Origin: Candidatus Lokiarchaeum ossiferum
Lineage (GTDB): Archaea > Asgardarchaeota > Lokiarchaeia > Sigyniarchaeales > Promethearchaeaceae
DNA length: 32,000 nucleotides
Reading direction: 5' to 3'
NCBI GenBank assembly: GCA_025839675.1
Contig: CP104013.1
Location: 2,790,001-2,822,000, forward strand
Made by a program: the position numbers and the translations under genes. This document shows, piece by piece, positions 1,521-32,000 of this stretch; within the stretch, counting starts at the first letter, position 1; every line of letters begins with the position of its first letter. The notes below the pieces were generated by a model. The model was not told where the DNA came from. It worked only from the letters and a program-made list of their open reading frames with translations, and did no database searches.

Positions 1521-2198
1521 TTATTCAGTTTCTGAAACCAAACTGACTTCACAAGAGTTCAAATCAATAAGAACTCCTTCTAGTTTTCCTTCTTGACATG
1601 TTCCACTGTTGGTATAGATTTTGGATCCGAATTCTTCTTTTGTAAGGTAATGGCTATGAGCACAAACTACAATGTCATATCCTTTATCCAACAGATTTTT
1701 TCCATAATCCATCACCTTTTGTCGAGTTCCCTTGTTTAAATAATACTTGTGAGCGAAAAAATTGTCAATATTCGGAAAAATGAGTTCAATTTTTCCTATA
1801 ATCCAACAAAAAAATCGTCCAATTTTATTTTTGAGATGTTTTTCATTTTTAAATCCATGAGTGATGCAAATTTTCTTCCCATTATTAGTAGTGAGAGAAA
1901 CTTTAAAGGCACCACCTAATGTATAGTCATGATTTCCACAGATTTTTATGACTCTCGAGTCATAATCCATAAATTTTATGATTGTTGGATGAGCATTGAT
2001 GATTTCAGCCATTTTTACTTGCCATAATTCATAAATATCTCCATTAATGTAGATATTTTGAGGGGAATATTTTTCCATAAAAGCAATTAGGCGATTTTCT
2101 CTTTCTAGACTGTTCGATTTAAGACTAAAATCATCTAATTTTGATCCATCAGCTAAATGGAAGTCAGAAACAATCAAGATTTGATCAGAATTGGACAT
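1521..2198 (-). CDS. calcineurin-like metallophosphoesterase (LpxH-like family)
   Basis: Ordered metallophosphoesterase motifs are present: VSDFHLADG (DxH), IYINGDIYELW (GD), ICGNHDY (GNHD), ITHGF (H) and VVCAHSHY (xHxH). The track ORF starts at a TTG (2252). I prefer the internal ATG at 2198 (MSNSDQILIVSDFHL). Confidence 0.8.
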   Translation of the reverse strand: MSNSDQILIVSDFHLADGSKLDDFSLKSNSLERENRLIAFMEKYSPQNIYINGDIYELWQVKMAEIINAHPTIIKFMDYDSRVIKICGNHDYTLGGAFKVSLTTNNGKKICITHGFKNEKHLKNKIGRFFCWIIGKIELIFPNIDNFFAHKYYLNKGTRQKVMDYGKNLLDKGYDIVVCAHSHYLTKEEFGSKIYTNSGTCQEGKLEGVLIDLNSCEVSLVSETE

Positions 2199-2272
2199 AC
2201 ATAGATGTTCGTTTTTTAACTTAAATGTATTGGGAAACCAAAAATCTATCAAAAAATGAAATATGAAAAAAA

Positions 2273-2971
2273 CTATTTCTCTTTAACAAGAAATCCTCGT
2301 AATATTTCAATTAATCCAATATTCAATGAAACTTGTCCAATGATTTCGAGGATAATACCAATATCACCAGCAACATTTCCAAATAGGAAGAGTAAAATAC
2401 CAACAATAATAAATATCATACCGATTGAGAAAAGTCGTAATTGTTTTCTAACGCGAGTATCACCCGCTTTTTTGACTAATAGTATGAATTTAATTAAAAC
2501 ATAAAACGCAATAGCTAAGCGGTATATTGAAATGTAAATTAAAAGACCGGGCTCAGTATGAGTATTTACTTCCCCAAGAGCATAATTTTCAGAATCAACA
2601 GTTGGTGTCCAAATAAAATATCCAAAAATTGATGAGAGAAATAGACTAAAAGTAATAAAAAGGAATTTCGGAGACATGGCTTTCTTTTCTGAAAATTCAA
2701 GTATAAATTCAGTCATTAACAAGCAAGCCAGACATAAATTGAGCAAAATATTTGTTGTAACCATGATATAAATGACCCAATCTGAGCTATTCAAAATTAA
2801 ATGATAGAGAACATACCCAAAGAAGCCTAAAGATGCAAAAGTAAAGAATAATGCAAAGAACCTATTTAACCAATAGTCCGGATTTTTTTTAATTTCAAGA
2901 TATGCACTAATAACACCAACAAACACCAAGATAACAGCGAGTACGATTTTGGTTACAGTGAGGGGCTCCAT
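2273..2971 (-). CDS. hypothetical integral membrane protein, about 7 TM segments
   Basis: 232-aa ATG ORF made almost entirely of seven hydrophobic stretches separated by short polar loops. No catalytic motif was recognised. Confidence 0.65.
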   Translation of the reverse strand: MEPLTVTKIVLAVILVFVGVISAYLEIKKNPDYWLNRFFALFFTFASLGFFGYVLYHLILNSSDWVIYIMVTTNILLNLCLACLLMTEFILEFSEKKAMSPKFLFITFSLFLSSIFGYFIWTPTVDSENYALGEVNTHTEPGLLIYISIYRLAIAFYVLIKFILLVKKAGDTRVRKQLRLFSIGMIFIIVGILLFLFGNVAGDIGIILEIIGQVSLNIGLIEILRGFLVKEK

Positions 2972-3152: not shown

Positions 3153-5588
3153 TTAAATCTTTTTAATTTCCTCAAACAAACGATTTGAAGCAGCACTTAA
3201 TTCTTCGGCGGCAGCAGTCATTTCTTCCAAAGTAGAAGCCATTTCTTCGGTTGAGGAGGAAAGTTCTTCAGCCGTACTTGAGCTTTCTTCAATCACACCA
3301 TTAATATTTTCCACATTAGTTACAATTTGGGTGATTTGATTGTCTTGGGTATTAACATTAACGATTGTATCCCGAATACCAACATCAGTTTCATTGATCA
3401 CCGTAAATAGAGCATCCAACTGCAATTTTGTTTGGTCAATTGCAGTGAATCCTTGTTTAGCAGAATCAACCGTTAAATCCGTGGCACTCACTGCATCTTG
3501 TACTTCTTTTTGGATCATATTTATTAATTCATTGATTTGATCTGCAGCTTGTTTGGAATCTTCGGCAAGTTTTCGCACTTGTTCAGCCACAACAGCAAAA
3601 CCTTTACCCGCATCTCCAGCACGAGCTGCCTCAATTGCAGCATTCAAAGCAAGTAAGTTTGTTTCTGTAGCAATCCCAGAGATCACATCTACAATTTTAT
3701 TGATTTCTTTACTTTTTTGAGATAAGGATCCCATCGTTTTAGAAACTCGTTCGGCACCGTCGTTAATCTCTTGAATCCGGAGTAGTAAATCATCAGTTAA
3801 AGCTTTTCCCTTTTTAGCCATACTTTGGCCTTCTTTGGATTTCATCGCAATATCTTCGGTACGAATAACGATTTTATCACTCAAGCCTTTTATTTGAGTT
3901 ACAGCATCAGATATCTGCATGACTTGTTGGGATTGACTTTGAGCACCTCGAGCAACTTCTTGGGATCCCCCAGTTACTTCTTGAACCGAAATATTAATTT
4001 GATTCGAAGATTCAGAGATCTGTTCTGCCATGGAATTAACTTCACTAGCGATTGTTTCAACATTTTCAATTAGGCCTCGAATGGTAGTCATATCAACAAA
4101 TGTGGTGAGATTTCCAAGGGGAGTACCGTTTGACGAATAGAGAGATTTAACAAAATTACTCACAATGATTTTTTTATTTTTAGCATTAGCAAGTTCATAT
4201 TCAAAATCAGAAAAGCCTCCATCTCGCTTAAATAATTGAACTGCTTCATCACATCGTTTTGAATCCACAAAAAATACATCAGGATTACGACCTAAAACAT
4301 CTTTTTCTTCGAATCCGGTCAATTCAAGGAAGGATTTTCCTACCATAGTTATCGCCAAGTTCTCATCCATCACCACCAAGGGAGATGAAGAAGAATCGAC
4401 TATGCTTTTATTCATATCGATAAGAATTTTGGTTTTACTAACCATTTCTTGTATATTTTGAGTAAGACCAACTATTTCGGTATCATTTGATTTGCTATAG
4501 ATTTCTGTGTCATAACTGCCCTTGGCAACTTCTTTTGCTTGAGATTGCAATTGTTCAATTGGGTTACTAATTGTTTTTGAGATGAAGAAGATTAGAAGAC
4601 CTAAAGCAACAACTCCAACAAACATTATAATTAAAGTGATGATTAGAAGGGAAGAAACAGCACCCAAGATTTGACTTCGAGGAAGGACGAAAGCAATGGA
4701 TCCATCAATTAAAGATATTGGCTTATACACTACAATAAAGCTGCCATAATCCAATGAACCAGATTTAGCACCCTTCATTTCAGTTAAAATTGTTGTTAAA
4801 GCCGCTTTATCGGTAGTATCTTGATCAATTAAATTATCTGTATTAAAGTATTCCCCTTCATCATAAGTCGCTGCAAAGGTGACTTCAACATTATCATGGG
4901 CTAAAATCGCACCCATTTTATTATCCAAGAGAAAAGCATAACCTCCATCCATCGTCCCACTAAGAGCTTTTATCTCAGTTTGTAAATATCCAATATCAAC
5001 ATCCAAACCTGCGACACCAATAATTGTATCCCCATCATATATCGGAATTGTGGCGGACATATATAAGAAATCGAGCACAGGATCGTAGTCCGGTTGTGTC
5101 CAAGTGAAATTTTGAGCGGTGATTGCTGTCTCATAGTACAGAGACCCATCATAATCGGCATATGAATAATATTCCAACACAACTGCCCCATCTCCATCAA
5201 GATATGCCAACGGCATATATTCAGAAGTAGTTGCCCCCGCTGTTTCATTCCAAGCCATATTCGGTTCAAAAGCCACCCATGCATCATAAAGCCAAATATT
5301 TGCAAGCACTAATTCGCCTAAATAAGCTTGGGTACTTTCCATAAAAGTAGCTTTATTGATTTCCAAATCTTTTTCAACTTGTTTCCCAAGTGATCGAACG
5401 ATATGTTCATATCTCTCAAATTGTTGATTAAATCCTGAAACATATTCACCAACTTGCATTTCAGCGACTTCCACAACTTTGGTTTTATATTTCGGTTGGA
5501 TGTAGAGGTATGAGATCAACCCACTTGCCACTAACGCTATCAATGCAGGAACAAGAATAAATAACAACATACGTTTCTGTAAATTCAT
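3153..5588 (-). CDS. methyl-accepting chemotaxis protein (TM - Cache-like sensor - TM - HAMP - PAS - MCP signalling domain)
   Basis: The C-terminal domain carries the near-invariant hairpin-tip sequence [35 protein letters not shown]. There are two TM segments ([23 protein letters not shown] and [23 protein letters not shown]) flanking a ~280-aa aromatic/Asp-rich extracytoplasmic domain. A PAS-like block ([33 protein letters not shown]) follows. The track start at 5624 is GTG, and the ATG at 5588 ([12 protein letters not shown]) is the likely start. Confidence 0.9.
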
Positions 5589-5958
5589 CTTTAGTAGATT
5601 CTGATTTTTTACCAATTTTTTCACCTAAAATATCTCCAAGCAAAATTCACCCTTTTCACTAAATATATTGTTGCATTGATAACAATTCTTAGAAAAAATA
5701 TGAAATCTGTAAATAAAATTACGAATAAGTAAATTCAAATCTAATTTAACATTCTTTAAATCGTATTCAATCGATATGATGTGATATTAGCAACAACAAA
5801 ACAAGATCAAAAAGTCTTGATTATTTACGTATCTTATAAATAGAATCTTTTATGGATCCCCTTTTTTTTATCAAGATACTATTTCTGGGAAATAAATCTA
5901 AACCATAGCTTTTTGGACAAGCATGAATTGTATCATAAGTAGGAGTTGCTCATAAAAC

Positions 5959-10697: not shown

Positions 10698-11600
10698 TTA
10701 GATTTCTCGGGATGGATTTGACATTTCCACATCTTTTTTTTCAAGTTGCTCAAGCTTGATTTTATAAATATACCATATAATTCCAAATAGTAGCAAAAGA
10801 ATCGAAATAACAACAATTTGATTAAGTACGGGGTTAATTAAAGTAAATCCAATGTTCCAGATAATATGTACCCCCATCGAGATAAACAAATTATTCGAAA
10901 CAATGTAGACAATGCAAAATAGAAGACCTATAAGGATCAAGAAAGGAATATTGATAATGATATCTATGAAAGAGAACCCTTGTATAATTCTATTTGGGAT
11001 ATGGATTAGCGCAAAGATTATACTAGTGGATAATGCACCTAACACTAAAGATTTAATTGGTTTTTTATCATTTTTGGATGAAATTTTTTTTGTTAATTGA
11101 GATAAGATGTATCCTCTAAAGAAAATCTCTTCAAAAAATACATTCCCAAAAATCTGGGCTATCAATAATCCAAAAGCGGAAAGAATCGTTTGTCCATCAT
11201 ATAACCACATTGGGTACCAAATTGGTTGAACATTAAAAATTAGACAGGCAATTAAAAAAATAAGATTTAAACCACACCAAAATAGGAAATAAAAAAGAAA
11301 TCCTTTCAATAATTTACCCTTCTGTATTCCAATACTTTTCCACGAATTTCTAGCAACTATTACTACGAATATAACAAGTATAATTAAGATCAAAACTAAG
11401 TATACAATAAAAGTTTGATTAATCAGGCCATCTGTGTTATTATCCACAAAGTTTAGCCATCCTTTTTCATAAACCACAAAAATTATGAAAAATATCAGAC
11501 CAACATAAAAAAGCAAAATGCTAAGTACGGTTTTCCAGGAGTTTTGTTTAGTGTTACTGCACAAATCCTCAGAAAAATTGCGTAGATGATTTTTAATCAT
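10698..11600 (-). CDS. CPBP-family intramembrane glutamic endopeptidase (CAAX protease/Abi type)
   Basis: All three family motifs sit in TM context: FFEEIFFRGY (EExxxR), IFALIHIPN (FxxxH) and GVHIIWNIGF (HxxxN). Confidence 0.85.
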   Translation of the reverse strand: MIKNHLRNFSEDLCSNTKQNSWKTVLSILLFYVGLIFFIIFVVYEKGWLNFVDNNTDGLINQTFIVYLVLILIILVIFVVIVARNSWKSIGIQKGKLLKGFLFYFLFWCGLNLIFLIACLIFNVQPIWYPMWLYDGQTILSAFGLLIAQIFGNVFFEEIFFRGYILSQLTKKISSKNDKKPIKSLVLGALSTSIIFALIHIPNRIIQGFSFIDIIINIPFLILIGLLFCIVYIVSNNLFISMGVHIIWNIGFTLINPVLNQIVVISILLLLFGIIWYIYKIKLEQLEKKDVEMSNPSREI

Positions 11601-12374: not shown

Positions 12375-13019
12375 TTAAATGGATATTTTTTTTCTAAATT
12401 TCTCAAGGGCAGGATTTTTTTCTTTCATCAATTGGACAAGATATGATTTGTTTAAAAGATCAGGTTCTTCTCCATTAAACTCATTTATTTTCCCATCTTT
12501 GTGATCTGGACAACATAACTGAAGAATTTCTGAAGGACGCCTTATACTTCCATTAAAAACCAACTTAGATTCTTTTGCTAAATCAGACTTGAGATCTTCC
12601 GAGGGAGCAAAATCAATTGGATCGATTTCCAAAGGTTGAATTTTTGGTGGAGGAACCGGAGTGCCCGATGGAGGGCGAGGAGGAGGAGGAGGAGGTGTTG
12701 GATAAGCAGGAGCACTAGGAACAAATTGATTAGAAGTTAGATGCATCCCACCTCTGTAGATGGATTGCTTCAATAAATCTTGGACGTACATTTGCATTGT
12801 ATCGAGTTCCTTTTGCAATTTTTCATTCTCGATCTTCATATCTTCGTACTTTTGAGAATGATCCCGCCAATGTTGTACGACAAGATTTGCAGTTCCCTTG
12901 ATACCAAGACTTTGTCCAATTTCCAGTTTCAAATTTGAAATTCTCTCGAACATTTCACCATCGACGTAGATAGGTTTAGTTTTTCTAACTGAATTTGATT
13001 TTGGACTACATTCTTCCAT
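12375..13019 (-). CDS. coiled-coil protein with central polyproline tract
   Basis: 214-aa ATG ORF. It has a heptad-like segment QKYEDMKIENEKLQKELDTMQMYVQDLLKQ, then PSAPAYPTPPPPPPRPPSGTPVPPPKIQP (16 Pro in 29 residues). Confidence 0.6.
   Translation of the reverse strand: MEECSPKSNSVRKTKPIYVDGEMFERISNLKLEIGQSLGIKGTANLVVQHWRDHSQKYEDMKIENEKLQKELDTMQMYVQDLLKQSIYRGGMHLTSNQFVPSAPAYPTPPPPPPRPPSGTPVPPPKIQPLEIDPIDFAPSEDLKSDLAKESKLVFNGSIRRPSEILQLCCPDHKDGKINEFNGEEPDLLNKSYLVQLMKEKNPALEKFRKKISI
12678..12695 (-). repeat. (AGG)6 on plus strand = (CCT)6 coding microsatellite giving PPPPPP
   Basis: Read directly as aggaggaggaggaggagg. On the coding strand this is six tandem CCT proline codons. Confidence 0.95.
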
Positions 13020-13327: not shown

Positions 13328-14404
13328 TCAGGGAACAAATGAAAAATAATCTTCTACATAATCTTTTATGAAGAAATAATCATTCAAAACCGTCGAATAA
13401 ACATAATTTCCCGTAATCCTGTGATCTGAAAATAATTTCTTTGTAAAGGCATCTAAAGATTTAATTAAAGATGGACTTGCTTTATCTGTTATGATGACTG
13501 CAAATAAAGGAGTTGTTGAAGAAGATTTAACTAATAAGGTTGCATTTTCTAAAATTATTTGTCTTACCTTCCCACGATTCAGCGTATAGTCAAATAAGTT
13601 TCCTGTAGCTTTCATAAATCCAGAAAAAATAGCTTCTGGAAACTCTTTACCCTTGTCGTTAAACTCATGGGTAAAAATGGACATTCCATTGTGAGAATCA
13701 ATTATTAATAATCGTTCTAAAGTAAAGGGAAGAATAAAAGCTAATTGGGGCGTATTTATCAATGTGTAGGTTGCGATAATCACTCCGATAGCAATAGCAC
13801 TATTTGCAATTCCAGGAACTATTTTCTCGAGTTTTGTGTATTGAATTATATAGGGCAGTATACCGTACATAATAAAACCAAAGAGATTATTACGAGAATG
13901 ATGAAGCAAATGCTTGGGACTCCGTCGTAATAAATTAACATTTGAGAAGAGCAATAATGAAATAATGAATGCCATCAACATCAGATTTGCAACTCTGAAA
14001 CGACCATGCATGGTTGGGTAAGGTTGAATTCCATCATAATCAATAATAACGGCATTTTCATCAAATGAAAAGACAATAACTAACATAACAATGGCAGTTA
14101 ACACAACAAACTTTCGAATATCATGTGTTTCAAGGGTTATAACATCAACATAAAGAATTGTGAAATAACCAACTCCAATTAAGGCATAAAAACAGATCAA
14201 ATGTAATTTTACGGAGAGAAATAGGTCAGATATGGCTTGAAATACTTCCCAAATAAACCAAAAAACCCACATAATCGCATAATAAAGAAGATGTTTATAA
14301 TGAGTTTTTCTATAGTGGTTTAAGGTAAATAAAACACACAACAATATAAATAATGCTGCGGAAAATGAAATAATTACACCAAGTGTCCAAAATATTTGTG
14401 CCAT
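13328..14404 (-). CDS. 7-TM membrane protein with C-terminal cytoplasmic roadblock/longin-like domain
   Basis: 358-aa ATG ORF. Seven hydrophobic segments occupy residues ~1-225. They are followed by ~130 soluble residues with a beta-beta-alpha-beta-beta-alpha pattern: LLIIDSHNGMSIFTHEF..EAIFSGFMKATGNLFD..VRQIILENATLLVKSS..LFAVIITDKASPSLIKSLDAFTKKLF. The fold assignment is inference. Confidence 0.65.
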   Translation of the reverse strand: MAQIFWTLGVIISFSAALFILLCVLFTLNHYRKTHYKHLLYYAIMWVFWFIWEVFQAISDLFLSVKLHLICFYALIGVGYFTILYVDVITLETHDIRKFVVLTAIVMLVIVFSFDENAVIIDYDGIQPYPTMHGRFRVANLMLMAFIISLLLFSNVNLLRRSPKHLLHHSRNNLFGFIMYGILPYIIQYTKLEKIVPGIANSAIAIGVIIATYTLINTPQLAFILPFTLERLLIIDSHNGMSIFTHEFNDKGKEFPEAIFSGFMKATGNLFDYTLNRGKVRQIILENATLLVKSSSTTPLFAVIITDKASPSLIKSLDAFTKKLFSDHRITGNYVYSTVLNDYFFIKDYVEDYFSFVP

Positions 14405-14552: not shown

Positions 14553-16580
14553 TTAAGTAATTCGATGAAACCATTTATCTAAATCTTGGTAAGATATTTT
14601 GATATAAGTGGGTCGCCCATGCGCGCAATGATGGGGATTTTCTGTTTCATCCAATTTTTTGATTAATCGACGAATTCGTTCTTCACTCCAGATTTCATCC
14701 CCAGCGGTAATACTCATGTGGCAAGCCATGTACTGCATCATCTCACGTTTAATAATGGAAAAAGAACTTTCTTTGCCTTTATGAATGATTTCTAAACACA
14801 TGTCAGTAATCAATGATTCTGACCGCTTCTCTTGTTTGAGAAGTGCGGGAATAGTGCGAATGATAAAAGAAGTTCCCCCAAAAAACTCCAATTCAAAACC
14901 AAATTTCTTAATATCCGGAATTGCATCTTTCACAAAATCAACTTCATTTGGGGCCACTTCTATTTTCATCGGAGTAAGTAACGTTTGAACCGTGATTTTT
15001 TCTTGTTCAAACATCTGTTGGACTTTTTCATAGTTTATGCGTTCATGAGCAGCATGCTGATCAATAATAATAAGTTCCTCTTCATTTTGAAATACCAAGT
15101 AATTTTTTCCCCCCTGAATACCGCTATTGAGTAAGGATAATGGAGGAAGTTGTTGGACAGAAATTGTGGGAGAACGAAGAGTGGAAGATTTTTTTTCAAC
15201 AGAAGAAGCAAATGGATGAGAAGAAATGTCAGATTTCTTTTTTGGAGTTTTAAAATGGGTTTGAATCGCCTTAATCGAGGATTTCCGAGGGGAGAGGGTT
15301 TGTTGAGGATCCTTAGGGATTTTTAAAACAGGGGAACTTTTTTTCTGGGAAACTGCGGATTTCTCTGAAATTGATGGAGAAGAAGAGGTCCCAGATCGAC
15401 TCGGTTTGGATGTTTGTGGGGTATTAGGTGAAACTTTTTTCATGGTTTTTCGAGAAGAAGGAGCAGAAGGGGTCCAATAATCCATGGAAGAATCCATCCC
15501 TCTTCGAGATTTTGCGGATTTTTCTTGATTGGAAGAAATTAAATCGGCTTTCACATGTTCTTTAACGAGTTGAACGACAATCATTTCCAGATTGGCAAAA
15601 AATTCCCGTTCATTAAGAAAATGGACCACTTTTTTTGAAGGATGGACATTAAAATCCACTTGGTCGGGTGCCAGATGAAGAAAAAGCACATAAAAGGGAT
15701 ATTTTTGGCGCATTAAATAATCTTTAAAAGCCGTTTCCATAATAGATGCGATGGAATTATTAGTAACTAAGCGATCATTGACAAACAATGAAGCCGCGGT
15801 TCGATCAGAGCGAGCAATTCCAGGTTTCCCAATAAACCCATAAACGCGTACCATATTATCCTGAAAATCTATAGGAATCATTTGATCGAGAACTTTTTTT
15901 CCATATATGGACTGAATCGCATGTCCAAAAGCTTCAAGAGGGAGGAGGGAAGGAATAATTGACTGGTTTTGTGAAGCCACCCAAGCAGGAGAGTTGGTTA
16001 AAGACAAGCCATTATGGAGCAGCTTGAAATGGACTAAAGGATACGCCAAGGCATATCGACAAACGACATCAGATATATGTCCCATTTCGATGCGATCGCT
16101 ACGCATAAATTTCTGGCGGACAGGAAGATTAAAGAATAAATTTTTAACTTTCAAGGTAGTCCCCACCGGACCTCCACACACACCCTTCCTTACATCAGCA
16201 CTTCCTTCCATGCATAATTCCACCGCATATTCTTGATTCAAAGGTCGACTTATAATTTCAATTTGGGATACTGCAGCAATACTAGCTAAAGCTTCCCCAC
16301 GAAATCCTAAAGTAGTCAATTGGTCCAGATCATCAGCAGATTCAATTTTTGAGGAAGTATGGCTTAAAAAAGCCACATCAAGATCTTCTTCAGGGATCCC
16401 GCATCCATTATCTTCAATTTGGATCAATTGTTTCCCAGCTTTCTCAATGGTAATGAAAATTTGTGTAGCATGGGCATCCAAAGAATTTTCGATTAATTCC
16501 TTGACAACGGAAGCGGGGCGTTCAATCACTTCCCCCGCTGCGATTTTTTCATAACCAGAAATAAGCTTTATTTTGGGCAT
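14553..16580 (-). CDS. mutL: DNA mismatch repair endonuclease MutL
   Basis: The N-terminal GHKL ATPase motifs are IAAGEVIERPASVVKELIENSLDA, EDNGCGI and LGFRGEALASI. The C-terminal endonuclease motifs are DQHAAHERINYE (DQHAxxExxxxE), ACHMSITAGD and CAHGRPT. A QTLLTP (QxxLxP-type clamp-binding-like) motif lies at the start of the C-terminal domain. The track start at 16616 is TTG, while the ATG at 16580 gives the canonical MPKIKLISGYEKIAAGEV N-terminus. Confidence 0.92.
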   Translation of the reverse strand: MPKIKLISGYEKIAAGEVIERPASVVKELIENSLDAHATQIFITIEKAGKQLIQIEDNGCGIPEEDLDVAFLSHTSSKIESADDLDQLTTLGFRGEALASIAAVSQIEIISRPLNQEYAVELCMEGSADVRKGVCGGPVGTTLKVKNLFFNLPVRQKFMRSDRIEMGHISDVVCRYALAYPLVHFKLLHNGLSLTNSPAWVASQNQSIIPSLLPLEAFGHAIQSIYGKKVLDQMIPIDFQDNMVRVYGFIGKPGIARSDRTAASLFVNDRLVTNNSIASIMETAFKDYLMRQKYPFYVLFLHLAPDQVDFNVHPSKKVVHFLNEREFFANLEMIVVQLVKEHVKADLISSNQEKSAKSRRGMDSSMDYWTPSAPSSRKTMKKVSPNTPQTSKPSRSGTSSSPSISEKSAVSQKKSSPVLKIPKDPQQTLSPRKSSIKAIQTHFKTPKKKSDISSHPFASSVEKKSSTLRSPTISVQQLPPLSLLNSGIQGGKNYLVFQNEEELIIIDQHAAHERINYEKVQQMFEQEKITVQTLLTPMKIEVAPNEVDFVKDAIPDIKKFGFELEFFGGTSFIIRTIPALLKQEKRSESLITDMCLEIIHKGKESSFSIIKREMMQYMACHMSITAGDEIWSEERIRRLIKKLDETENPHHCAHGRPTYIKISYQDLDKWFHRIT

Positions 16581-16775
16581 TGATCTTAGCTTTATTCTTC
16601 CATCCTTTTTAATCAATTTACTAAGGGGTAATTAGAAGGAGAACAAACCAATTTTTTTTTCTTTCCATTTTTGAGAAATGATGTATGATTTTCAGATCAA
16701 TTATGTATAAATATTCACACATTGTGACTAAGAATAATGGAAGCTTTTTATCAATAAAGGTCAAACCAAAGCATT

Positions 16776-27730: not shown

Positions 27731-28189
27731 CGAGTGTATAAATGCAATGGTGATTATGAAGTTTCTTCTGATGGAAAAGAAAAAGGGATTTCGGATATAA
27801 GAAATCCAAGATCTCACTAAATTCTTTGTATAGACAATGTTTTGAATGATTAAGATCAGTTGATTAAATTATGATTTAGTGCCATTTTGATGAAATTTCT
27901 TCAAAATCTTGACAAGTTTGTCATCTATCGAACATCCATTCATTTGCGGAGACATTTTCTAATAATTTTAAATATTTTGAGAAGAAAATAATACATAATC
28001 ATTTACTACAAACAAAATTGTTGGAAAATAACGGTTATTATAAAATAATAAAAAGATGATCATATTTCGAGTCTTTTGAGGGTCTTTTGAAAGAATGCGT
28101 TTCTATTATAACAGTTATTGAAGAAACGGGTAAGCTTAGTTATAAGTTTTATTTCCGATGATTTTAGAATTAATGGAGAATGACAATTG

Positions 28190-31100
28190 ATGAAACAATT
28201 AATGAAAAGAAATAAAATTCCAATTCGAATCTTATTCCTGGGTATCTTATTCATGATTTTGATACCATCCTTCATTCAAACAGGAATGAATAAAGATGAT
28301 AACTTTGAAAATCCCAGAAATTATTCGAATAGGACCCCAAACAGTCAGGTTGACCCAGAGGGAAATGAAATTTCCGTTGTATTATCGCTTAACACCACAG
28401 AACTTCCAGCAGGGCAATCCATAGGATTTAGCGCAATTTACACTGGGTCTGAAAATCCGGGACTATTGAGAATTTGCACGTCCTATGAAGGATATAGTAC
28501 AGTAGAATATTCCTTTGATATGTATGAAGCAGATCCCGATAATACTGATTATGCCAGTGGAAAAGAATATATTACAAATATTTCACAAAGCCTCTTGTCT
28601 ATCATCATGCCCAACCACTTTGACTTTTATTGTTATGCAATTCCAACCTTTAAAAATGTTGTAGTAGGCTTTAATGGAGATGAATCCAATGTTGAATATT
28701 TTCAAATAGTAACAGCACCACCTATCGTGGATGATATCACTTTATCTCAACACCAAGTTTATTTTAATGAGCAATCCCGCACTTTCCTTGAATGTAGTGT
28801 ATCTGATTTCGATACTGCTTTAGAAGATCTATCGGGAAAAACCTTTCTGAAAAATACAGTCAATGATGAACAAGTGCTAGTTCTAATGCATCCGTTATCC
28901 TATTATGTCTCAGATTATATTTGCAACGAACTTCCTTTCTATAATTATTTGGAGTTTATGTTAAATGACATGGGAGATATTTTTGCTACTGTCGAAGAAT
29001 TAGAAGCAGAAATTAATACCCCCACTTGTTTATACGCTCGGATAGACACGAGATCGGATCCAATTAATACTGTGATCAATTCAGCGGGACCATGTATTCT
29101 AAATTATACAGTTCAAATCACCGATGGGAATGCGTCCTCAAGTTCCGTTCCAATCCTACAAACAGTGAATTTTTATGAGGATATTGAATCCATCAATCGA
29201 CCGAACATAGCACCATCCCTCAGCGCTTCTATCAACCCTAGACCTATTTGGATAGAAAATCCTGTCTACCCGACTATTTCTGTTACTTATTACGATGAGG
29301 AAGATTATCAACCCGACACGATCCGCATGTTCGTTTATGATCCTGCAGGAAATACTCGATCCTATACTCTAGCCTATGACACAGAGAAAACTCCGATTCA
29401 TAATTCCCCAGATGATGGAATTGTTTATTCTATAGATATTGAACCCTATGGGAATCAATTCGAGGATGAAGGAGTCTATCGAGCCTATTTTACTTTTTCG
29501 GATGAGGATAATGATTGCCGTTATCCCCTCGATTCATCTCAAACAGTAAAGCTATTCTATGTCGGAGATTTAGTCGCCCTACTTGGAGGGGAAGTATCCC
29601 AAACCCGGATTGATTATTATGACACGGACAAAATAACTTTTTCGATTGATTATATGCACTATCAGAATACCGCTCCCGATTCAGATGTGATTCTCACCTT
29701 GAAAAATCCACGCAGCGGTACTATAAACACGCATCCTTGTGTTCTCATTGAAACTGATCCAAAAATTTCCAAGGGTACCACTTATACTTACTCAATGCTT
29801 ATCGGAGACACTGGTTTTGAGGATATTGGTACTTATGAATTTTGGTTTAGTACGATGGTTGATAGTACTCCGGTCCAATCCCAAGTGTACAAAGGACCAA
29901 GTGTTAGTCGGGAACAATTTTCAGCCATATTCGTCAATGGTCCAACTCGCGTGCGAATCAATTCCAGCCAAATTCTTTCTTTTGAAACATTTTATCAAGA
30001 TAGATATTCACTCCCTGACAGTGCCAAATTGTATATAATTCCGTTAGGAGAAGAAGAGAATACCACGGAATATAATTTAGCCCATGCAATTAGTGATGTA
30101 GATTATCAAGACGGAGTGATTTATAATATTTCGTTGGTAGAAGGTGAAGGAATTCTAAATCGAACAGGTAGCTATGAATATTGGATAGTGTTCAATCGAG
30201 ATGGGGAGGTACAGCGAATTCCGGGGATGGAAGACAACTATCAATTTTCCATCCATAGTGAAACGACAATTATTTCAACGATAACTGATTCGGAGATCTT
30301 TTTAGAAAAAGGAAAGGGCGAAGAGGCGGAAATCCATTTTACACTTTTAGATCCATTAAATCGATCCTATCTTACCAGTTTCCACAAACCATATTTCAGA
30401 ATTAGATATGAAAATAACACAAAAGATAAAGTTCCTCTTATTTGGGGGGATAATTTGATGGAAGTGGATAAATACGATGATAATTGGGTCGATGGGAAAG
30501 ACTTTTACTTCAAGTTGACGGAGGGTGAAGGTGTTTTAAATGCAGAGGGAGTCATAGAGGGATACCTTGAAATTATACCAGAAGATGGAGATGAAGCATT
30601 ATTTTGTCCAGGACCCCACGAATATACCTATACAACAGTTTTTAAGATCTATGATTATGCAAGTTTTACTTATGATGCAGCGGTCCATTCTTCATTGACC
30701 CCAACAATTGATCAGAATTTTAAGTGGAAATCAGGCGAGGATATTATTTTTATAGTAAATTATTCGCAACCTCAAAATTTCGAACCCAAAATGATTGCCT
30801 TAGCAATCGACGATGGGATTGTTCCTGATCAGAAACCTCACTATCCTATGGAAAAACTTGATCCTTCAGACAACAATTATACCGATGGATGTTTATACTC
30901 GATAAAAGTGGAAATGGGAGGAGAACTTCTACCTTCGATTGGAGACTACTCGTATGATTTTTATTATGGCATCGAACATCACCGAATTTTCAGGGGTGAT
31001 TTGGGACAAGGTGAATTCTATGCATTCACTATAGAAAATGACGCCCCACAACTTTCTAATATTCTTGTAGATGATCCGATTCTAAAAATAGGCGAATCTA

Positions 31101-32000
31101 TTCCAATTGTGGTAAATTATACGGATTCTGATGGCGTAGCTCCCGATGAAATTAAACTTTCCCTTTATAATGAAGGGGACGAAGGCGTTTTTGACCATTA
31201 TACCAATTTTACTATGACCCCTCAGACTGTAAATAACCGTGATTATACAATGGGAGTGCTATATATTGCCATGGTGGAAGCAGGTACATATCGTTTCAGC
31301 GAACTTGGAAATTATTCGTACTGTATTTGGGCTACAGATGGGTTAGAAACAGATTTACTCACCGAAACAGATTCGACTTTATATCCCGAACTCGAAATTC
31401 AAGATTCAATGTTCACGTTATCAGAAGGATCATCAAATCCGGCCGTAGTGAATTACTCGAACCCCACTAATGTCAACTTTTTAGTCTACTATACCGATCC
31501 AGATGGGGACTTTCCAACCTATGTTAATGTGTCGATTTATTCAGGAGATACTCTCGAAACAACCTACGATCTAGCCCAAATTGGAGGAATTCATTCCGAT
31601 ACCACAAGACCAGTTCCTTATGCTATACTTCGAGATGTCACTGCATCTTTAACCCCAGGAAATTATACCTATGTCTTTGGAGCTTTCGATGGAACAACGT
31701 ACTTGGAACTTGCCGATGAAAGCTTCACATTGGAAATACAACCATCTATGTTCACATTATCGGACGGATCTGCAACTCCAGCGGTGGTTAATTATTCGAA
31801 TCCAAGCGATGTCGACTTTTTGATCCACTATACCGATCCGGATGGCGACTTCCCAACCCATGTCAATGTGTCGATCTATTCAGGAAGCACCCTCGAGACA
31901 ACTTATGACTTAACCCTAATTGGATCCTTTTCCGATACCACGGGATTAACCCCCTACGGCATCAGCCAAGATGTTACGGCATCCTTAACCCCAGGAAATT
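28190..32000 (+). CDS. giant secreted/anchored repeat protein, over 1270 aa (3' end beyond the window)
   Basis: Absent from the ORF track because it is open at the window edge. Hand translation from ATG 28190 (stop TGA at 28181-28183 in frame upstream, GGAG at -14) is stop-free to 32000. The N-terminus MKQLMKRNKIPIRILFLGILFMILIPSF is signal-like. It is followed by at least 8 modules sharing YxDxDxxxP...GxYxYxF...DG skeletons and at least 20 N-x-S/T sequons. Confidence 0.85.
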   Translation, partial: MKQLMKRNKIPIRILFLGILFMILIPSFIQTGMNKDDNFENPRNYSNRTPNSQVDPEGNEISVVLSLNTTELPAGQSIGFSAIYTGSENPGLLRICTSYEGYSTVEYSFDMYEADPDNTDYASGKEYITNISQSLLSIIMPNHFDFYCYAIPTFKNVVVGFNGDESNVEYFQIVTAPPIVDDITLSQHQVYFNEQSRTFLECSVSDFDTALEDLSGKTFLKNTVNDEQVLVLMHPLSYYVSDYICNELPFYNYLEFMLNDMGDIFATVEELEAEINTPTCLYARIDTRSDPINTVINSAGPCILNYTVQITDGNASSSSVPILQTVNFYEDIESINRPNIAPSLSASINPRPIWIENPVYPTISVTYYDEEDYQPDTIRMFVYDPAGNTRSYTLAYDTEKTPIHNSPDDGIVYSIDIEPYGNQFEDEGVYRAYFTFSDEDNDCRYPLDSSQTVKLFYVGDLVALLGGEVSQTRIDYYDTDKITFSIDYMHYQNTAPDSDVILTLKNPRSGTINTHPCVLIETDPKISKGTTYTYSMLIGDTGFEDIGTYEFWFSTMVDSTPVQSQVYKGPSVSREQFSAIFVNGPTRVRINSSQILSFETFYQDRYSLPDSAKLYIIPLGEEENTTEYNLAHAISDVDYQDGVIYNISLVEGEGILNRTGSYEYWIVFNRDGEVQRIPGMEDNYQFSIHSETTIISTITDSEIFLEKGKGEEAEIHFTLLDPLNRSYLTSFHKPYFRIRYENNTKDKVPLIWGDNLMEVDKYDDNWVDGKDFYFKLTEGEGVLNAEGVIEGYLEIIPEDGDEALFCPGPHEYTYTTVFKIYDYASFTYDAAVHSSLTPTIDQNFKWKSGEDIIFIVNYSQPQNFEPKMIALAIDDGIVPDQKPHYPMEKLDPSDNNYTDGCLYSIKVEMGGELLPSIGDYSYDFYYGIEHHRIFRGDLGQGEFYAFTIENDAPQLSNILVDDPILKIGESIPIVVNYTDSDGVAPDEIKLSLYNEGDEGVFDHYTNFTMTPQTVNNRDYTMGVLYIAMVEAGTYRFSELGNYSYCIWATDGLETDLLTETDSTLYPELEIQDSMFTLSEGSSNPAVVNYSNPTNVNFLVYYTDPDGDFPTYVNVSIYSGDTLETTYDLAQIGGIHSDTTRPVPYAILRDVTASLTPGNYTYVFGAFDGTTYLELADESFTLEIQPSMFTLSDGSATPAVVNYSNPSDVDFLIHYTDPDGDFPTHVNVSIYSGSTLETTYDLTLIGSFSDTTGLTPYGISQDVTASLTPGN
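31409..32000 (+). repeat. in-frame tandem duplication of a 113-aa module (period 339 bp, with one codon indel)
   Basis: ATGTTCAC(G/A)TTATC... at 31409 recurs at 31748. AACCCCAGGAAATT at 31651 recurs at 31987. By hand alignment the two copies are about 75 percent identical at protein level. Confidence 0.9.

Follow-up and report, generated by a model that had tools for sequence, protein, structure and literature searches.

The stretch analysed here, 32,000 nucleotides of the genome of the Asgard archaeon Candidatus Lokiarchaeum ossiferum (contig CP104013.1; hereafter the window), carries a complete gene for a protein in which seven membrane helices are followed by a soluble tail that appears, on structural grounds, to be a longin-fold domain. 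We refer to this protein and its family as 7TM-longin (7TM, seven-transmembrane; TM1 to TM7, the individual helices). Its parts, together with a second, tail-less 7TM protein encoded in the same window, are listed in Table 1. The open reading frame (ORF) had been delimited exactly in the first-pass annotation, which was made from the sequence alone, and its annotated start coincides with the N-termini of homologues in our alignment. When 1.84 billion cluster representatives (clusters at 50% identity) were searched exhaustively with phmmer, 443 matched at E ≤ 1e-3, of which 305 reached E ≤ 1e-10; among the matches listed, most were about 355–365 aa long and aligned end to end with the window protein. 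Judged by these sequence relatives, the ORF is a real conserved gene and not a chance ORF. Since most of the listed members match end to end, it is the two-part architecture itself that is conserved, and not the domains alone.

Table 1. Coordinates of the 7TM-longin gene, its parts and the second 7TM gene within the window
Feature	Position	Strand	Description	Evidence
7TM-longin gene, complete	13328..14404	(-)	ATG start, 358 aa, stop 13328-13330	ORF listing, Asgard full-length homologues, AlphaFold2
Seven-helix membrane module	13754..14383	(-)	Residues 8-217; predicted N-out/C-in; putative distant relative of HisKA_7TM-type sensor modules	
Cytoplasmic loop 2, conserved	14111..14146	(-)	D87...K98, inner end of TM3/TM4; consensus D-x-I-x-R-E-x-x-D-P-x-K	
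Small beta-hairpin in the TM4-TM5 outside loop	14009..14050	(-)	Residues 119-132; DSSP E119-122, E129-132	
Linker after TM7	13721..13753	(-)	Residues 218-228; motif P-[QK]-[LI]-A-[FY]-I-L-P-F, top-conserved in the family	
Cytoplasmic longin domain, predicted	13331..13720	(-)	Residues 229-358	AlphaFold2 models, Foldseek PDB
C-terminal motif F-x-F-[VI]-P	13331..13345	(-)	Residues 354-358, very end of the protein	
Stand-alone 7TM protein	2273..2971	(-)	232 aa, tail-less, probable distant paralogue of the membrane module	

Seven membrane helices and a soluble tail

An AlphaFold2 model of the full protein, built on a 61-sequence alignment, had a mean predicted local distance difference test score (pLDDT) of 93.1, a predicted template modelling score (pTM) of 0.87 and no residue below a pLDDT of 50. 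DSSP applied to this model gave seven long helices (residues 8–34, 37–62, 65–90, 96–113, 134–161, 164–190 and 199–217), and a Kyte-Doolittle scan agreed, which bears out the seven hydrophobic helices that the first-pass annotation had counted. In the model the bundle has almost no ectodomain; the hairpin between TM4 and TM5 is its sole structured extracellular element and lies within the least conserved region. The soluble tail of about 130 aa had been placed from about nt 13723, which is also where the model puts its boundary (residue ~228–229, nt ~13723–13720), and the longin fold accounts for all of its 130 aa. We detected no catalytic output domain: Pfam and NCBIfam scans gave no model covering the window protein, Pfam had no match at E ≤ 10 to either the full-length protein or the tail alone, and no HisKA, HATPase, GGDEF or other enzymatic domain was found behind the membrane module by Pfam or in the AlphaFold2 model.

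DSSP on two AlphaFold2 models resolved the tail into E229–236, E242–247, H257–275, E282–284, E289–294, E300–306 and H311–326, ending in short helices at 328–331 and 340–343 and a final helix at 345–353. The elements picked out by eye in the first-pass annotation fall on these: LLIIDS is E229–236, MSIFTHEF is E242–247, EAIFSGFMKATGNLFD is H257–275, VRQIILENATLLVKSS covers E282–284 and E289–294, LFAVIITD is E300–306 and SPSLIKSLDAFTKKLF is H311–326. The resulting order, bbabbbaa (b, strand; a, helix), is the longin arrangement as defined by Levine et al. (PMC3747258), in which the roadblock domain is a circular permutation, abbabbba.

A separate model of the tail only had a pLDDT of 87. When it was searched against the PDB with Foldseek, all of the top 50 matches were longin or roadblock proteins; 20 matches had E ≤ 1e-3, and TMq, with the predicted model as query, was 0.5–0.65. 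The best match was zeta-COP (3tjz_C, 4.5e-5), followed by TRAPP (3cue, 2j3t, 7b6d, 7e2c) and AP2 sigma (TMq 0.63), and then by Fuzzy-Inturned, CPLANE and Mon1-Ccz1. MP1/p14, Streptomyces LC7 (3kye), LAMTOR, Ego3 and MglB (6hjm, 2.2e-3) ranked lower. The full model gave two coherent sets of PDB matches, and its tail portion again matched TRAPP small subunits, Fuzzy, zeta-COP, AP sigma, Mon1-Ccz1, LAMTOR and LC7. At the level of sequence, the sole recurrent Pfam family was Fuz_longin_1, the first longin domain of FUZ/MON1/HPS1, which was matched by seven of 57 tails scanned singly; all of these matches were below threshold, with a best E of 0.0064. We conclude that the modelled tail is a longin-fold domain on structural grounds, its family-level sequence membership being unproven.

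The first-pass annotation had called the tail roadblock/LC7/MglB- or longin-like. The superfold was borne out by the Foldseek matches and the longin half by the order of elements, while the roadblock/LC7/MglB half did not stand. Membership of Robl_LC7 was rejected, as only a 5-residue linker helix (219–223) precedes the first strand and the extra helices are C-terminal; Robl_LC7 is also absent from the 25 Pfam families most often matched, at E ≤ 10, by 61 full-length members or the 57 tails, although a lone match further down may exist.

Orientation, conservation and relatives

Lysines and arginines (K+R), averaged over 61 homologues, are scarce in the segments placed outside (0.13 at the N-terminus, 0.07 in L2, 0.70 in L4 and 0.41 in L6) and frequent in those placed inside (3.13 in L1, 0.98 in L3, 3.57 in L5 and 2.72 in the 20 residues after TM7), with totals of 10.4 inside versus 1.3 outside. 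This positive-inside signal is clear and indicates an N-out/C-in topology, so that the longin tail is predicted to be cytoplasmic, as had been proposed, and not outside the cell.

We expressed conservation as the mean information (in bits) per element of the 61-sequence alignment. The linker after TM7 came out on top at 3.22 bits, with P219, L225, P226 and F227 nearly invariant. Intracellular loop 3 (ICL3, with P163) also falls in the highest class, and extracellular loop 1 (ECL1) and ICL2 (D87...K98) rank next; in the latter, D87 hardly varies and K98 belongs to the top-conserved columns. The tail is intermediate at 2.13 bits, the helices average about 1.7 bits, and ECL2 is lowest at 1.48 bits. 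The C-terminal motif has an invariant F354 and nearly invariant F356 and P358. Other conserved positions of the tail are an F-S-G at the start of α1 and G278, R281 and I283 around β3. In longin domains α1 and β3 form the dimer interface, and α1 lies on the GTPase-contacting face (PMC3747258); the conserved tail positions thus map to dimer-interface elements. Overall, the pattern of high conservation in the linker, ICL3 and ICL2 and low conservation in ECL2 fits a role in signal transduction, to judge from the alignment. This pattern, together with the high pTM, suggests that in the modelled protein the bundle and tail are in fixed mechanical coupling.

The same data bear on a simpler explanation, in which the bundle senses nothing and is a passive anchor that tethers a longin scaffold to the membrane, as LAMTOR1 tethers Ragulator, while regulation takes place elsewhere. 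Eukaryotic longin/roadblock scaffolds are often merely membrane-tethered, Ragulator being an example. The missing ectodomain, with just a 14-residue hairpin outside, would suit such a role, as would a membrane core without any invariant charged or polar residue and conserved positions that lie mostly on the cytoplasmic face. However, seven conserved helices far exceed what anchoring needs, the module appears related to the input modules of sensor kinases (see below), and the fixed inter-domain geometry, with the linker and inner loops the most conserved parts, suggests coupling and not a loose tether. We therefore regard a purely passive anchor as unlikely.

The putative relationship to sensor kinases emerged from profile comparisons. 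Two of the 61 7TM-longin members match HisKA_7TM (best E 4.9e-4) and one matches 7TMR-DISM_7TM, all sub-threshold. The stand-alone 7TM protein provides a second route. The first-pass annotation saw no similarity between it and the 7TM-longin protein because a single-sequence comparison of the two is not significant, yet hhalign of the two families gave a probability of 79–84% and E-values of 1.6e-5 to 7.6e-6 over 201 columns and all seven helices, with a score of 43.5 against 16–26 for reversed or block-shuffled controls (≤66 columns). The two are thus probably remote homologues. The stand-alone protein, which is 99% identical to a protein named as Candidatus Lokiarchaeum ossiferum, has a family (50 relatives) that independently matches both HisKA_7TM and 7TMR-DISM_7TM, and its member P0204 reaches 28.1 bits on HisKA_7TM, where the gathering score is 28.6, over model positions 7–190 of 224. 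These sub-threshold-to-borderline matches to hidden Markov models span TM1–TM6 in register. The membrane module is best described as a putative divergent relative of prokaryotic HisKA_7TM-type sensor modules, and in this genome such a HisKA_7TM-like module appears to exist both alone and fused to a longin domain.

This putative link supports the receptor-like character that the first-pass annotation had given the protein, and does so better than its formal analogy to G-protein-coupled receptors (GPCRs). Homology to GPCRs was rejected: Foldseek returned only weak generic matches to classes A and C, with E-values of 3e-3 to 3e-2, root-mean-square deviations of 6–9 Å and 9–14% identity, and no Pfam 7tm family was matched.

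The stand-alone 7TM gene itself has flanking genes on the same strand, at 1521-2252 (-) and 3153-5624 (-); a chemoreceptor (methyl-accepting chemotaxis protein, MCP; Cache, HAMP, PAS) lies on one side and a metallophosphoesterase on the other. The adjacency to the phosphoesterase is shared with Promethearchaeum syntrophicum MK-D1, where the order is flipped, and is missing in a more distant relative; the adjacency to the MCP is not conserved.

A HisKA_7TM-like membrane module raises the question of whether the tail belongs instead to the PAS/GAF-like part of the profilin-like fold class, as a small-molecule-binding or regulatory domain, or controls some transport or enzymatic function that the bundle itself would have. 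PAS and GAF domains are built on the same antiparallel sheet (order 2-1-5-4-3) flanked by helices, and in histidine kinases they are typically found behind sensor TM modules. Nevertheless, none of the top 50 Foldseek matches of the tail was a PAS, GAF or V4R protein, although these are very abundant in the PDB; the V4R and GAF alternatives named in the first-pass annotation were rejected on this ground. Of the Pfam families that the 57 tails match most often at E ≤ 10, none is PAS or GAF; such a sensor would have no enzymatic output domain downstream to control, and the bundle shows no conserved catalytic-looking or ion-binding residues that would support the version in which its own activity is regulated. 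We consider this explanation very unlikely and retain the longin assignment in what follows.

All members of the 7TM-longin family that could be traced to a named organism are from Asgard archaea: Promethearchaeota, Hodarchaeota, Sigynarchaeota and P. syntrophicum. A word-index search found seven close relatives, of which the named ones come from Promethearchaeota and Hodarchaeota, and the protein names supplied by the sources are always "hypothetical protein". Scanning species-representative genomes with the pattern P[QK][LI]A[FY]ILPF, which undercounts divergent members, gave 15 loci; 12 are titled as Asgard (Promethearchaeum, Promethearchaeota, Helarchaeota, Hodarchaeota) and three as "uncultured archaeon". 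The family is present in both cultured Lokiarchaeia. In P. syntrophicum MK-D1 it forms three tandem same-strand copies (locus L005, 4741-5832, 5944-7077 and 7328-8404), which include DSAG12_03429 and DSAG12_03431 with the third copy in between. These share 53–68% identity with each other and 37–42% with the window protein, and are therefore lineage-specific duplicates. Metagenome-assembled genomes (MAGs) of related Promethearchaeum (L006, L007) have at least two tandem copies, and in one MAG from Helarchaeota the count is four or more. Such tandem paralogues could heterodimerise via their longin domains.

A few metagenome members carry extra C-terminal parts, namely an alpha/beta hydrolase in P0101 and a Cys4 zinc ribbon in P0076, P0109 and P0110. 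In P0109 and P0110 the ribbon is followed by a region of about 140 aa with a strand-strand-helix-strand pattern; a second longin domain there was considered and found no support from hhalign or Pfam.

A candidate docking platform and its genomic neighbourhood

Since no catalytic output domain was detected, we infer that the output of the protein must be a protein–protein interaction. Our preferred reading, which we put forward tentatively and would not yet call probable, is that a membrane sensor or anchor has a longin docking platform as its output. The bundle would sense a cue within or at the membrane, for instance a hydrophobic ligand, a lipid or the physical state of the membrane, or would at least contribute positional information. 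The signal would pass via the conserved cytoplasmic loops and the linker to the longin domain, and longin domains, probably as a homodimer or as a heterodimer with a paralogue, would form a putative membrane-attached docking platform. By analogy with all well-studied longin/roadblock platforms, its likeliest client would be a small GTPase or a GTPase-binding partner: either a member of the large set of Asgard small GTPases (Rab-, Arf-, Rag- or MglA-like), which lack lipid anchors, or, alternatively, a soluble partner of longin or roadblock type to which the GTPase binds. The protein would in this way set the site on the cell membrane at which a GTPase is recruited or switched.

In favour of such a client, the Foldseek matches of the tail include GTPase-platform subunits of TRAPP, Mon1-Ccz1, Fuzzy-Inturned, Ragulator and MglB. 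Asgard Rab-like GTPases are without prenylation cysteines (PMC10933270). A function as GTPase regulator is something we infer from the roles of longin domains elsewhere. Its most specific form, a signal-regulated, membrane-integral platform acting as guanine nucleotide exchange factor (GEF) or GTPase-activating protein (GAP) for Asgard small GTPases that lack a lipid anchor, is possible, and we regard it as on the doubtful side.

Several results weigh against a GTPase-linked platform. The longin assignment is sub-threshold at the sequence level, and profile searches of PDB sequences with the tail and the full-length protein gave nothing beyond chance-level matches to BAR, TetR and Hsp70. HisKA_7TM is tied to the membrane module by indirect and borderline evidence, and the window protein has no Pfam match of its own. 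Coat subunits rank among the best structural matches of the tail, and the longin folds of AP sigma, zeta-COP and SNARE proteins do not regulate GTPases. The neighbourhood, which we surveyed by a motif search in 18 distinct loci, all-against-all clustering and a Pfam census of 112 ORFs (16 non-redundant loci), adds to these points. A Ras-like GTPase lies within about 6 kb in only one of the 18 loci (L014), a P-loop GTPase motif was not found in the 32-kb window, and no Ras, Arf, Roc, roadblock or longin family recurs among the 112 neighbouring ORFs. The neighbourhood association with small GTPase genes that the first-pass annotation had suggested looking for was not seen. Neighbourhoods are not conserved at all: the clustering gave no constant partner, and there is no synteny between the window, the locus of a 50%-identical orthologue and that of a Sigynarchaeota member. 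Because Asgard GTPases and their regulators are generally not in operons (Tran et al., PMC10933270), the missing linkage weakens the hypothesis and does not refute it.

The prominence of coat subunits also brings in a trafficking or coat role, in which the longin domain would act like a sigma or zeta subunit or a SNARE longin, with no direct regulation of a GTPase. It would then bind larger adaptor-like or ESCRT-like Asgard proteins and mark patches of membrane for vesicles or protrusions. The two coat proteins zeta-COP and AP2 sigma are top structural matches, Asgard genomes encode fusions with adaptin/COPI-like C-terminal domains (bioRxiv 10.1101/2020.10.19.343400), and cultured Lokiarchaeia show vesicles and protrusions (PMC10933270). 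However, the longin subfamilies cannot be told apart by their Foldseek E-values, those of TRAPP, Fuzzy and Mon1 being within about one order of magnitude of the coat subunits, and the sole sequence-level signal is to the GEF-type longin domain of Fuz/Mon1/HPS1. In addition, the census of 112 ORFs contained no adaptor-like neighbours. We consider this role distinctly unlikely and keep to the docking platform, with a GTPase or GTPase-binding client, as our preferred reading.

The commonest neighbour families in the Pfam census were leucine-rich repeat (LRR) proteins, SDR, GNAT and MFS. LRR genes are the most frequent, in five of the 16 loci and a few kb from the family gene (L001 12576-14060, L011 8758-9618, L013 7929-8825, L014 1685-3139 and L017 104-1546), which may just mirror their abundance. 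In L014 the Ras-like GTPase gene (4072-4680) lies between the LRR gene and the 7TM-longin gene.

The window has a low G+C content (31–39%), and the neighbours of the 7TM-longin gene in it encode MutL, a GH2 glycosidase, an Rce1-like protease, EF-1beta and proteins of unknown function. The gene for the MutL homologue (14553-16616 (-)) is directly upstream, on the same strand and across a gap of 148 bp; its product is full-length, with HATPase, DNA_mis_repair and MutL_C, and has a long Ser/Pro/Lys-rich linker. Just downstream, 12375-13019 (-) encodes a 214-aa protein without a Pfam match that contains a proline run (PAYPTPPPPPPRPPSGTPVPPPK). Proline tracts are typical ligands of profilin or SH3-type domains, and this run is possibly of interest given the archaeal actin/profilin cytoskeleton. 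About 2 kb downstream of the family gene is an Rce1-like membrane protein of the CAAX protease family (10698-11600 (-)), and in L001 an Rce1-like gene (1-698) also precedes the 50%-identical orthologue, at a distance of about 7 kb. The family is widespread in prokaryotes, so that such a neighbour is by itself no sign of protein prenylation. At the 3' end of the window, an ORF of at least 1,272 codons with a hydrophobic, signal-anchor-like start (28184-32000 (+)) runs past the window end, which accounts for the apparent shortage of ORFs there. An RNA explanation for this ORF-poor end was dropped, as there were no Rfam matches anywhere in the window.

Small GTPases number in the dozens in Asgard archaea, as do longin and roadblock proteins, and those tested showed no membrane targeting (PMC10933270). 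The 7TM-longin family joins a longin domain straight to a membrane module of sensor type and so offers a concrete, tractable entry point for experiments. Should a GTPase partner be found, the chain from membrane sensor to longin domain to GTPase would be older than eukaryotes. If there is none, the family would still represent a new type of output for prokaryotic 7TM sensors, as well as a Pfam-less family of more than 400 clusters. If the GEF/GAP platform were true, a longin platform of eukaryotic type would be under the direct control of a seven-helix sensor of prokaryotic type, giving an archaeal answer to where on the membrane a GTPase gets switched on. It would then be a possible evolutionary precursor of the membrane-recruited longin GEFs (Mon1-Ccz1, TRAPP, Ragulator-like) and an independently arisen functional analogue of GPCR signalling.

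Comparison with known systems

The 7TM-longin protein is a novel combination of known parts. We found no description of a 7TM-longin fusion in the literature, and the combination appears to be undescribed, though an unnamed cluster among the asCOGs of Liu et al. (2021) may already hold the family. The closest structural relatives of the tail are the eukaryotic longin platforms (Mon1-Ccz1, the first longin domains of Fuzzy-Inturned, TRAPP small subunits, zeta-COP and AP sigma), which have the same fold and the same bbabbbaa order and act at membranes; sequence similarity to them is below family thresholds. The eukaryotic proteins are soluble or peripheral and recruited by lipids or partners, and none of them is fused to a polytopic membrane module, unlike 7TM-longin. 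Roadblock/LC7/MglB proteins, among them MglB, the bacterial GAP for MglA, and LAMTOR2-5 in Ragulator, share the superfold with the tail and make dimeric platforms for small GTPases (PMC3747258). Roadblock domains, however, begin with a helix, whereas the 7TM-longin tail has two strands at its start and helices at its end.

Among prokaryotes, the nearest precedent in logic for a path from a membrane sensor through a roadblock-superfold protein to a small GTPase is provided by the actinobacterial G-protein systems known as conservons, which consist of the membrane sensor kinase CvnA (a sensor of histidine-kinase type), the roadblock/MglB protein CvnB, CvnC and the small GTPase CvnD (PMC13343842, PMC13621833). 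Their parts are separate proteins encoded in one operon, with a real kinase and an adjacent GTPase gene, whereas 7TM-longin is one polypeptide with no kinase domain, operon or linked GTPase gene in the 16–18 loci surveyed. HisKA_7TM (PF16927) and 7TMR-DISM_7TM (PF07695) proteins have an N-terminal seven-helix input and a cytoplasmic output, as in 7TM-longin. Their outputs are usually enzymatic (histidine kinase, cyclase or phosphatase), while that of 7TM-longin is a non-catalytic longin domain, and the protein is also without the extracellular domain of 7TMR-DISM. With GPCRs it has in common seven helices, the predicted N-out/C-in orientation and a cytoplasmic signalling face. GPCRs are direct exchange factors for heterotrimeric G proteins and act via their loops, not via a fused longin domain, so the logic of receptor to GTPase regulator would be only formally analogous, if the proposed function is right. 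Longin domains fused to two-component signalling domains have been described in Asgard archaea by Liu et al., and the 7TM-longin protein fits this known Asgard theme, in which a eukaryote-type longin domain is joined to prokaryote-type signalling modules.

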